Below are positions 20,523 to 23,342 of a stretch of 32,000 bases of DNA, piece by piece. A program made the translations under genes and the position numbers. Each line of letters starts with the position of its first letter. Positions within the stretch are counted from its first letter, which is position 1. This DNA is from Candidatus Hermodarchaeota archaeon. GTDB lineage: Archaea > Asgardarchaeota > Heimdallarchaeia > Hodarchaeales > Hodarchaeaceae. The notes below the pieces were generated by a model, which was not told the DNA's origin, did no database searches, and saw only the letters and a program-made list of their open reading frames with translations. The DNA is taken from the NCBI GenBank assembly GCA_048886185.1, contig JBHLKY010000004.1, positions 180,001 through 212,000 on the forward strand, read 5' to 3'.

Positions 20523-21065
20523 TTATTTCCTAAATTTGGGTATATAGAAATATATATTTGTTTTCTTCATTAACCAGTCCATTCCTACAATTATTCCTTC
20601 AGTAGTTTTTCAGGAAATAAATTGAACTTTATAAGTTTTGTTATATCCTTCTATAGTTAATTTTAAATCCTCTAGGAGCTTTTCTTCATCATTTGGGTTA
20701 ATTAGATCAATTTTATTCCCGAAGATAAGAAATGGGAGCTTCTGTAATGATCTTGAAACTCGAATTCTTTGAAAAAAGTCAAGTCCAAGAGAATATTCCT
20801 TTTGAGTTGAAACATCAAGAACGTAAATATGCCCTACAGAACCTAGAGTGAGTGGTTCCCACTTTTCTGTTGGTAACTTTTTCTCTAGTATGTTTATAGT
20901 ACGAAGGTGAACTTGATCAACTCGGGCTTGTTCAAAATCTCTAATACCTCCTTGAGTATTCGAATAAAAAATACCTGAGTACAAGCGAAATAAGAGAGAT
21001 GTTTTACCTGCATTTGGGGTACCTAAGATGCTAAAGAAATGGAAAATAATCATTTTTTGATCCAT
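20523..21065 (-). CDS. Arf/Arl-like small GTPase with an in-frame TGA in G5 (recoded gene or recent pseudogene)
   Basis: G1 GTPNAGKT, G4 GNKID, degenerate G3 (NILE). After TGA at 20612-20610 the same frame continues KTTEGIIVGMDWL to TAA at 20525-20523. Confidence 0.75.
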
Positions 21066-21237
21066 TACTTAAAAGTGATTATACTCTCCTTTTTATGCAT
21101 TATTAGGCATATAAATTATTTGGCTTTTCATTTATATTTTCAAATGTATCTAAACCTTTTAAACACATGTTAAAAGAAGGGTTGTGAATAATTTTAATGA
21201 AAAAGAGTAGATTTTAAAGTAGAATAAGCATGAATTC

Positions 21238-22701
21238 ATGGTGATAGGGATTTTTATTAGTAGTTTGATTATTACTTGTTGTTTTATTGGTGCTATTATA
21301 ATTATTTTGACTGAAAAAATGAATCGTGCTATTGTTGCTATCACAGGGGGATTAATTAGCTATTTTACCTTGACTTTTCTCGAAGGTATCGATTTTTCCA
21401 CCATCGTGGAGCTATTATTCGGTTCTCAAGCTGACAATTATGTGAATCTCCATTCATTAATGTTGATTATTGGTATAATGTTTATCGTTCATATTTCAGA
21501 TGAAATTGGTACTTTTCAATTCTTAGCTGTTGTGATGATAAAGATGTCGCGGGGAAAACCGATTCCACTAATGATCATTCTCTGTACAATCTCAGTCCTT
21601 TTTTCATCTTTATTAAATAACATTTTAACTGTAATGATCTTAATTCCCCTTACCATTACAGCAAGTCGTGTTTTAAACGTTTCTCCAACCCCATATATTT
21701 TAACTCAAGCAATCATGGTTAATATTGGAGGAACATTTTTTTCTATCTCTTCTATCCCCAATATATTGATATTTAATCCCTCTACTGGAATTTCATTTAT
21801 TGATTACTTCTTTGAGATTGGATTCTTTTCAATTATAACCTTTATTTTTTCATTATTACTCTTTGTATTTCTCTACAAAAATGATTTATCCATTCCAAAA
21901 GATAAAGCTATCAAAATTTTATTATATGATTTTGATGTCTGGAATGTTGTCCAAAGTCCCCGTTTATTATATGCCTCCTTAATTGGATTGAGTAGTTTAA
22001 TGTTTTCCTTCATTATTTTTCCTGCTGAGATTCTACCTCCTGACGTGATCGCTCTCAGTATTGCAATGTTATTAACCATTATTAGTCGTTTAGACGCAAA
22101 AGAAATTATTGAAAAGTTTGATTTCGAATTAATGTTTTATTTACTCGGTATTTTTATAGTTGTAGGAGGATTGGAAGTTGTAGGTGTTGTTGATCTATTA
22201 TCGAGCATCCTTCGAAGTATTGGAGGAGGAAATGAATTTTTACAACTGATCATAATAATGTGGGTTGCAGCTCTTTCTAGTTCGTTCATCGATAATGTTC
22301 CTGTTACAAAAGTCTTTATTCCGATAGTTCAAGGAATAGCTGGTACTTCTCCTTCTTCAAAAAATATATATTACTACGGTCTTTCCATCGGTGCGAATTG
22401 GGGAGACAATTTGACACCATTAGGCGATAATATCTTAGTTCTGAATATTGCAAAGGAAAATAATCGGCCTATTAGCATTAAAACATTCTGGAAGCTCGGA
22501 TTCATAACCACTCTCTATCAATTATTCTTGGCAACTCTTTTTTTCACTTTTCTTTATGATATTACTCTTGGAATCCTAGTATCTGGGTTATTATGTGTTA
22601 GTATTGGAGTATTAATTATTTTATTTAAATCTGGGCCTTTTAAAATTCATTCCATAATTAACATGCTGATTTTCAGGTTTAGAAATTTCGTGATTACCTG
22701 A
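21238..22701 (+). CDS. ArsB/NhaD (SLC13/P-protein-like) ion transporter superfamily permease
   Basis: Many TM helices; SSLLNN, NIGG...PN, FIDNVP, GANWGDNLTPLG hairpin motifs. Confidence 0.88.
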   Translation: MVIGIFISSLIITCCFIGAIIIILTEKMNRAIVAITGGLISYFTLTFLEGIDFSTIVELLFGSQADNYVNLHSLMLIIGIMFIVHISDEIGTFQFLAVVMIKMSRGKPIPLMIILCTISVLFSSLLNNILTVMILIPLTITASRVLNVSPTPYILTQAIMVNIGGTFFSISSIPNILIFNPSTGISFIDYFFEIGFFSIITFIFSLLLFVFLYKNDLSIPKDKAIKILLYDFDVWNVVQSPRLLYASLIGLSSLMFSFIIFPAEILPPDVIALSIAMLLTIISRLDAKEIIEKFDFELMFYLLGIFIVVGGLEVVGVVDLLSSILRSIGGGNEFLQLIIIMWVAALSSSFIDNVPVTKVFIPIVQGIAGTSPSSKNIYYYGLSIGANWGDNLTPLGDNILVLNIAKENNRPISIKTFWKLGFITTLYQLFLATLFFTFLYDITLGILVSGLLCVSIGVLIILFKSGPFKIHSIINMLIFRFRNFVIT

Positions 22702-23342
22702 TGGTGATAATTTTGATTGAAAAAACAATTGATCGAATTAAAAGAACCCTGCCTGAAGTTGAACATGTTGTCATGTTTTATAACGATGGCACCGTGTTTC
22801 ACAGTACATTTGAACACAAAGTAAATATACCAAAATTAGGAGAAAATATCTCTGAAACATTAGCTTCTCTGAAAAAGATATATCAAATCTGTAACTTTGA
22901 TTTAGAAAGTTATAACAAACTTGTATTTGAAACAACGGACGTCAATGTTATTATTCTAAGACTTGGGGAGAATAGTAACCTTGCATTGTTTTTTAGGAAA
23001 AGGAGAGGAGAACTCAGAATTCAATCTATTCGTCAGTATATTGAGAGAGCTGAAGAATTATTAGATGTTGATAGAGAGGAACTTGTTGAACAGAAGCTTG
23101 AAACAAAAGAAAGCCAATTACAGGAGTTGAAACTACAATTTGGGTCTCATCAATATAAATTAATAACACTTCAAGAATATCTAAACGAAATTAAAGAGGA
23201 AGAGAAAGAAAAACAGTTATCTAAGGAGATAGAAAAAACAACTAGAGAGATTTTGAGAATTAAAGAAGAAATTGATAAAAAGATAGCTGAAATCAATGAT
23301 GTAAAAGTAGAACTTAACCCAGAAGATTCATCAAGGACATAG
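22701..23342 (+). CDS. Roadblock/LC7-like domain fused to a C-terminal coiled coil
   Basis: Helix, VVMFYNDGTVFHS hairpin, long helix, LVFET-VIILRL-LALFF strands and final helix match roadblock topology; residues about 122-205 are E/K/L heptad-rich. Start overlaps the transporter stop (TGATG). Confidence 0.75.
   Translation: MVIILIEKTIDRIKRTLPEVEHVVMFYNDGTVFHSTFEHKVNIPKLGENISETLASLKKIYQICNFDLESYNKLVFETTDVNVIILRLGENSNLALFFRKRRGELRIQSIRQYIERAEELLDVDREELVEQKLETKESQLQELKLQFGSHQYKLITLQEYLNEIKEEEKEKQLSKEIEKTTREILRIKEEIDKKIAEINDVKVELNPEDSSRT

Follow-up and report, generated by a model that had tools for sequence, protein, structure and literature searches.

A transporter-Roadblock gene pair conserved among Asgard archaea, and its Arf-like GTPase neighbour

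Results

A transporter gene coupled to a Roadblock gene

We analysed a stretch of 32,000 nucleotides from Candidatus Hermodarchaeota archaeon (assembly GCA_048886185.1, contig JBHLKY010000004.1, positions 180,001 to 212,000; G000:C4:180001-212000 in our own notation), hereafter the window, with a focus on a permease gene, the gene for a Roadblock-coiled-coil protein that follows it, and a divergently oriented gene for an Arf-like GTPase. The source genome measures 4.84 Mb and is 96% complete. Our preferred reading, to which we give a probability of about 60%, is that the permease and Roadblock genes make up a cassette of two that is confined to Asgard archaea, and that the Roadblock protein is a dedicated cytoplasmic accessory subunit of the transporter.

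The first gene of the cassette (21238..22701, forward strand) encodes a permease of 487 amino acids with CitMHS/ArsB/NhaD-like features, that is, of the ion transporter (IT) superfamily. The second (22701..23342, forward strand) is an open reading frame (ORF) of 213 codons. The TGA stop of the permease gene and the ATG start at position 22701 have one base in common, and together they form a TGATG stop/start overlap (22699..22703, forward strand) that can be read directly from the sequence. An earlier note on this window, made from the letters alone, had described an ArsB/NhaD-type permease coupled through TGATG to a Roadblock protein with a coiled-coil tail, and each part of that description is borne out by the overlap itself and by the profile and structure matches detailed below.

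The association of the two genes is not peculiar to this genome. The permease orthologue and the Roadblock gene were adjacent and on the same strand wherever we looked (12 of 12 loci, 30 of 30 best loci and 52 of 52 loci with wide flanks, from several Asgard families), and the permease orthologues across Asgard loci share 50-78% identity. The permease comes first in 50 of the 52 wide-flank loci, the order being reversed in two (L069 and L089), and the gap from the permease stop to the Roadblock start has a median of 6 nucleotides (range -11 to 22, 29 loci). The most distant members of the Roadblock family, found on metagenome contigs with 27-30% identity, are likewise preceded by a permease.

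Presence and absence of the two genes coincide as well. Among the 83 genomes of the class, the same 34 carry both a permease orthologue (expectation value, E, at most 1e-60) and the Roadblock gene, and 49 carry neither. At the level of the phylum, 112 of 400 genomes have the cassette Roadblock domain, mostly in single copy, and within the genus the distribution of the cassette is patchy (8 of 21 genomes). Duplicated Roadblock genes are each accompanied by a permease of their own (L079, L085, L086/L087 and L071/L089). The locus of the closest relative, a Hodarchaeales metagenome-assembled genome whose Roadblock protein is 84% identical (L107:1536-6277), has the two-gene block inverted with respect to its flanks, and intact.

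Two of the duplications are tandem copies of the whole cassette (L085:4227-12388 in genome G053 and L079:5316-10977 in genome G129). The L085 locus also holds a third transporter copy, which has no Roadblock gene.

A divergent Roadblock domain with a helical tail

The AlphaFold2 (AF2) model of the 213-residue protein, built on an alignment of 21 sequences, has a mean predicted local distance difference test (pLDDT) score of 79.7. Its first 105 residues (22701..23015, forward strand) are predicted to fold into a domain in which a helix (2-16), two strands (20-27 and 32-35), a second helix (43-63) and three further strands (73-77, 81-87 and 92-99) follow each other in an alpha-beta-beta-alpha-beta-beta-beta order, with pLDDT values of about 75-89. 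Two more helices, at residues 107-163 and 167-205, make up a coiled-coil-like tail (23019..23342 with the stop codon, forward strand), in which the pLDDT reaches 81-93 over residues 131-200. A Foldseek search with this model returned MglB (1j3w, 6h5b and 6hjm) and Asgard Roadblock proteins (9jue, 9jq8 and 7f8m) at E of about 1e-7, with a probability of 1.00 and template modelling (TM) scores, normalised by target, of 0.63-0.75. The LAMTOR chains 5y3a, 6ulg and 1veu were also among the matches. On the strength of its predicted structure, the protein is confirmed as a divergent member of the Roadblock/LC7/MglB fold.

Sequence profiles alone give no clear answer on this membership. The Pfam model Robl_LC7 (PF03259) did not match the 213-residue protein up to an E of 10, and the protein is not among the 15 Robl_LC7 matches of the genome; of its 21 homologues, 3 are matched by PF03259, the best with an E of 4.2e-6. 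Nor was the cassette family detected at an E of 1e-4 by a profile made from ten of the genome's own Roadblock domains, and searches of Pfam, NCBIfam and Atlas features with the protein gave nothing beyond spurious coiled-coil or weak matches. An exhaustive search of 1.84 billion representative proteins with a profile of the family itself returned 71 members, of at most 561 residues, with a sharp edge in the E-values.

Conservation within the family is concentrated in the domain and in roughly the first 25 residues (about 107-130) of the helix that follows it, the rest of the tail varying by lineage. Three loop motifs of the domain, MFYNDG, NIPKLGEN and LKLGENSNLALFF, are near-invariant, and conservation of this strength fits a fixed binding partner. 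The proteins come in three length classes, of about 127-145 residues (no tail), about 205-310 residues and 561-575 residues. The tail is some 80-100 residues long in the window protein and in many Loki-type genomes, and about 450 residues long in the family that the sources name Heimdallarchaeaceae (family f3; L021, L024, L066, L070 and L082-L085). One source annotates the proteins of 561-575 residues as "chromosome segregation ATPase", for which their domain content offers no support.

The permease and its C-terminal extension

The permease matches the Pfam families CitMHS (PF03600; E = 2.6e-64, 217.9 bits for a cut-off of 31.9) and ArsB (PF02040; E = 1.1e-17, 64.9 bits for a cut-off of 22.2), and the profile match over its whole core places it in the CitMHS/ArsB/NhaD group of the IT superfamily. 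Among solved chains, an arsenical pump membrane protein is the nearest (E = 1.5e-11), and structure matches in the Atlas have TM scores of 0.83-0.91. Assignments to more narrowly defined families failed: the permease reaches 86.9 bits for a cut-off of 457 with one NCBIfam model of the ArsB equivalog (NF011980) and 85 bits for a cut-off of 760 with another (NF033877), and it also scores far below the NCBIfam cut-off for MamN. As it lies so far under these ArsB and MamN cut-offs, we assign it no substrate.

The Atlas matches to bacterial relatives cover residues 24 to about 444. Beyond them lies a C-terminal extension (residues 445-487; 22570..22698, forward strand), which a hydropathy scan and the aligned tails of 39 cassette transporters resolve into one additional hydrophobic helix and a basic tail of the pattern K.G..K....(K/R)(F/L/I)R..II. 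The extension is absent from two sets of distant permease paralogues that are without a canonical Roadblock partner. The positive charge of the tail suggests that it lies in the cytoplasm, and the extension may be a docking site for the Roadblock protein.

What the Roadblock protein may do

We favour the subunit reading because translational coupling is tight, co-inheritance is strict, and the partner is a small soluble protein that is sharply conserved. The Roadblock protein, translationally coupled to a secondary ion or anion transporter, would dimerise, as is usual for the fold. The dimer would then bind the transporter from its cytoplasmic side, possibly at the added basic tail, where it could gate, regulate or position the transporter, and the variable coiled coil may act as a spacer or as a tether to something else. 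Physical binding, the place of docking and a regulatory or tethering role are what we infer from the behaviour of the genes. A prediction of the complex between the permease and residues 1-140 of the Roadblock protein gave a score of 0.30 for a mark of 0.32 in a single run without controls, and we count it neither for nor against binding.

Three considerations weigh against this subunit reading. Related genomes inherit their gene order, so that fewer independent observations underlie the adjacency counts than their size implies. No fusion of transporter to Roadblock, or of GTPase to Roadblock, turned up among the longer proteins (374-2000 residues) or in the exhaustive profile search. The earlier note had listed fused versions as a check on its proposal, and a transporter fused to its Roadblock partner would have been the best indication of a complex that genomes can give. 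Finally, a role free of GTPases would be unusual for the Roadblock fold, no nucleoside triphosphatase (NTPase) is conserved in the cassette, and to our knowledge every characterised Roadblock protein works with an NTPase.

An alternative that would restore such a partner is that the Roadblock-coiled-coil protein, sitting on the transporter, provides a platform at the membrane on which one or several small GTPases from elsewhere in the genome could assemble, with a Ragulator-like logic that needs no gene linkage. We consider this unlikely, if the most serious of the alternatives. There are 66 Arf-family matches in the genome, and the fold is nearest to that of MglB, which is a GTPase regulator. 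In the cultured Asgard strain MK-D1, small GTPase genes were found in a survey to be generally outside operons with Roadblock genes (PMC10933270), which makes absent linkage a weak counter-argument. However, no candidate GTPase emerged. In 40 loci outside the genus, we counted 9 small GTPases in 572 kb around the cassette, i.e., 1 per 64 kb, for a genome-wide density of 66-83 per 4.84 Mb, i.e., 1 per 58-73 kb; small GTPases are thus not enriched near the cassette. Moreover, nothing links the conserved surface motifs of the Roadblock domain to a GTPase in preference to the transporter. One might speculate further that the cassette originated within Asgard archaea, that its transporter-anchored Roadblock dimer is the landing platform for GTPases encoded elsewhere, and that it is a forerunner, in its logic, of the coupling of lysosomal transporters to Rag/Arl GTPases by Ragulator; we hold this fuller scenario to be somewhat more doubtful again.

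It is improbable, in our view, that the two genes are merely co-transcribed, the Roadblock protein doing, e.g., cytoskeletal or tethering work without touching the transporter. A coiled coil whose length ranges from none to about 450 residues does look like a tether. But the strict co-occurrence (34 genomes with both genes, 49 with neither) and a tight coupling that has been kept through rearrangements and duplications would be difficult to account for if the two genes had no function in common. Joint gain and loss, together with the survival of the pair through rearrangement, lead us to argue for such a shared function despite the kinship of the genomes.

The Arf-like GTPase is a bystander

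The Arf-like GTPase frame (20523..21065, reverse strand) is a neighbour of the cassette and lies outside its conserved part, separated from the permease gene by an AT-rich spacer of 172 base pairs (21066..21237). The earlier note had seen an Arf-like GTPase across this divergent region and had joined it to the pair in a transceptor-roadblock-GTPase circuit, to be checked by the conservation of the three genes across Asgard genomes. The spacer and the divergent orientation are as it described. The link between transporter and Roadblock protein is real as well, and much stronger than the letters alone could tell, with the genes adjacent in all loci examined and either both present or both absent in each of the 83 genomes of the class. 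The GTPase arm of the circuit did not survive the comparison, and the frame itself turned out not to be open, a point on which the note is silent.

The GTPase family (E at most 1e-25) is limited to 7 of the 22 genomes of this genus, with none in the 61 other genomes of the class, and a GTPase orthologue stands beside the cassette in only 3 of the 52 other loci, all from one genus. Four genomes of the genus (G000, G008, G012 and G017) have both units, with GTPase unit and cassette adjacent and divergent. In three others (G001, G016 and G021), the GTPase and the gene for a CxxCxxCC protein that accompanies it occur without the cassette, next to unrelated neighbours (GNAT, DUF362 and EamA), and in five cassette-bearing genomes of the same genus (G003, G009, G010, G014 and G015) the GTPase was not found. 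Of the 7 GTPase loci, 6 have the CxxCxxCC gene after the GTPase. G003 has kept this gene next to the cassette but not the GTPase, and the same holds for the locus of the closest relative. The GTPase is therefore part of a separate, genus-limited GTPase-CxxCxxCC unit, a bystander to the cassette, and this independent assortment is the very outcome that the earlier note had named as refuting its circuit.

In the window, the CxxCxxCC (YkgJ-like) gene is downstream of the GTPase (19901..20485, reverse strand), as identified by tblastn (63% identity over 180 residues); an orthologue matches PF03692. The frame is open, but has no ATG, GTG or TTG start before codon 105 or so.

The GTPase frame is interrupted by an in-frame TGA at codon 152 (20610-20612), and with translation table 11 it yields a product of only 151 residues. 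Read through to its 180 residues, it matches the Arf family (PF00025) with an E of 8.5e-13, up to position 173 of the 174 of the profile, in the last helix; the match to Gtr1_RagA is a mere trace (E = 0.022). The motifs G1 (GTPNAGKT) and G4 (NKID) are retained, and the DxxGQ of G3 is replaced by NILEK here and by NILEN or NIVEN in the orthologues. Judged by these motifs, the window GTPase is a divergent Arf relative that falls outside the canonical Arf/Arl motif set. In three orthologues, the position aligned with the TGA is the cysteine of an SCK (G5) motif, and here G5 reads S-TGA-K. Contigs assembled separately for four samples of one study all show the TGA, whereas two other positions vary among them, and it is therefore not a slip of assembly.

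The two varying positions are window 21019 (G>A) and 23114 (C>T). These single-base differences among contigs from different samples of that study are population variation around an otherwise identical locus.

Could the TGA be decoded, as selenocysteine or by read-through, and the GTPase be intact and functional? Its position is exactly that of a conserved cysteine codon, the next 28 codons are open and highly similar to those of the orthologues, and it is fixed in the contigs of the four samples. Against this, the selenocysteine machinery was not detected in this 96% complete genome: the best SelD and SepSecS candidates stayed under their cut-offs (49.4 bits for 125 and 22.2 bits for 224.85, respectively), the Rfam model of selenocysteine transfer RNA reached 31.9 bits for a cut-off of 47, and ARAGORN found none. 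An Rfam scan of the region 19800-23500 gave no match resembling a selenocysteine insertion sequence (SECIS), its sole match being a sub-threshold PYLIS_3 (22.7 bits for a cut-off of 38) that we take as chance. In addition, the change from TGY to TGA takes a single base, the permease gene also ends in TGA, and the site belongs to a nucleotide-binding loop and not to a redox site. We consequently see little chance that the codon is decoded. The GTPase has probably been inactivated in this genome, the simplest reading being that a nonsense mutation turned TGY into TGA in a gene already lost by relatives.

That the permease senses a nutrient and the Roadblock protein relays the signal, as a GTPase-activating protein or guanine nucleotide exchange factor, to the divergent GTPase in one circuit is thus very improbable, for although Roadblock proteins do regulate small GTPases in MglA-MglB and Ragulator-Rag, and the two units are adjacent and divergent in four genomes, the GTPase is confined to a fraction of one genus when the cassette is spread over the phylum, each is found without the other, and the GTPase is missing at the locus of the closest relative and here is both interrupted and devoid of the DxxGQ switch II motif. 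A tempting three-gene story is thereby removed as unsupported.

Other genes around the cassette

On the other side, the cassette faces a convergent region on the reverse strand (23356-27329) with genes for an acetoacetate-CoA ligase (NF002937, 844.6 bits), a DUF35/ChsH2-like protein and an ORF of 423 residues (26058-27329). The order of this region beside the cassette is retained within the genus only. At the locus of the closest relative (L107), from which the GTPase is absent, the acetoacetate-CoA ligase gene is upstream of the cassette and co-directional with it, and the CxxCxxCC gene is directly downstream.

Several Asgard families repeatedly have genes for CorA Mg2+ channels (11 loci) and MscS channels (6 loci) at less than 4 kb from the cassette (e.g., L057:3263-4351 and L060:9982-10794). 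Neither is a conserved third gene of the cassette, as they are not operonic and not universal. Their recurrence hints weakly at ion homeostasis as the setting.

Comparison with known systems

Roadblock and longin proteins abound in Asgard genomes, alongside dozens of small GTPases, and it is difficult to match the partners because the genes are rarely linked in operons (PMC10933270). The cassette family differs in having an unambiguous and always-linked partner, which is a membrane transporter and not a GTPase, and this provides a concrete pair for expression and testing. It also suggests that membrane transport proteins may be direct targets of Roadblock domains in the archaeal relatives of eukaryotes. 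Should a GTPase take part as well, the pair would show how signalling of the transporter-Ragulator type could have begun; if none does, the known uses of the Roadblock fold would be widened.

An operon with a LAMTOR1-like Roadblock protein, a Rab-like GTPase and a DENN protein has been described in Asgard archaea (Liu et al., bioRxiv 10.1101/2020.10.19.343400). Like the cassette, it is an Asgard-wide conserved neighbourhood with a protein of the Roadblock superfamily. It combines a GTPase with a DENN protein and lacks a transporter, whereas the cassette has a transporter and no conserved GTPase. The transporter-Roadblock pair is not mentioned in that work, and literature searches for Asgard Roadblock proteins together with transporter, permease, ArsB or coiled coil found no description of it. 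The two-gene module is well supported and apparently undescribed.

With MglB and other Roadblock/LC7 proteins, including the Asgard structures 9jue, 9jq8 and 7f8m, the cassette protein is predicted to share the alpha-beta-beta-alpha-beta-beta-beta fold, and these are its best structural matches. It differs from them in being too divergent for the Pfam model, in carrying a conserved helix and a variable coiled coil appended to the domain, and in having a transporter instead of a GTPase as its fixed neighbour. MglA-MglB is characterised by a conserved, adjacent gene for the cognate GTPase, of which the cassette has no counterpart.

The resemblance to Ragulator (LAMTOR)-Rag-SLC38A9 is an analogy at most. 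In both cases a protein of Roadblock fold is associated with a membrane transporter, here by gene linkage, and the fold matches include LAMTOR chains. However, the cassette transporter is of the IT superfamily and not an SLC38 amino-acid transporter. Nor is a Rag-type GTPase with a C-terminal Roadblock domain linked to it, the neighbouring GTPase being Arf-like, 180 residues long, not conserved with the cassette and interrupted.

Transporters that have a cytoplasmic partner of their own are well known from AmtB-GlnK and ArsB-ArsA, and ArsB is the nearest named family to the cassette transporter. The partner here has the Roadblock fold, and not that of PII or of the ArsA ATPase, and no ligand or nucleotide site is known on it. 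What the cassette has in common with these systems, as seen from the genes alone, is a transporter gene coupled to the gene of a small soluble partner, the two being conserved and inherited together.

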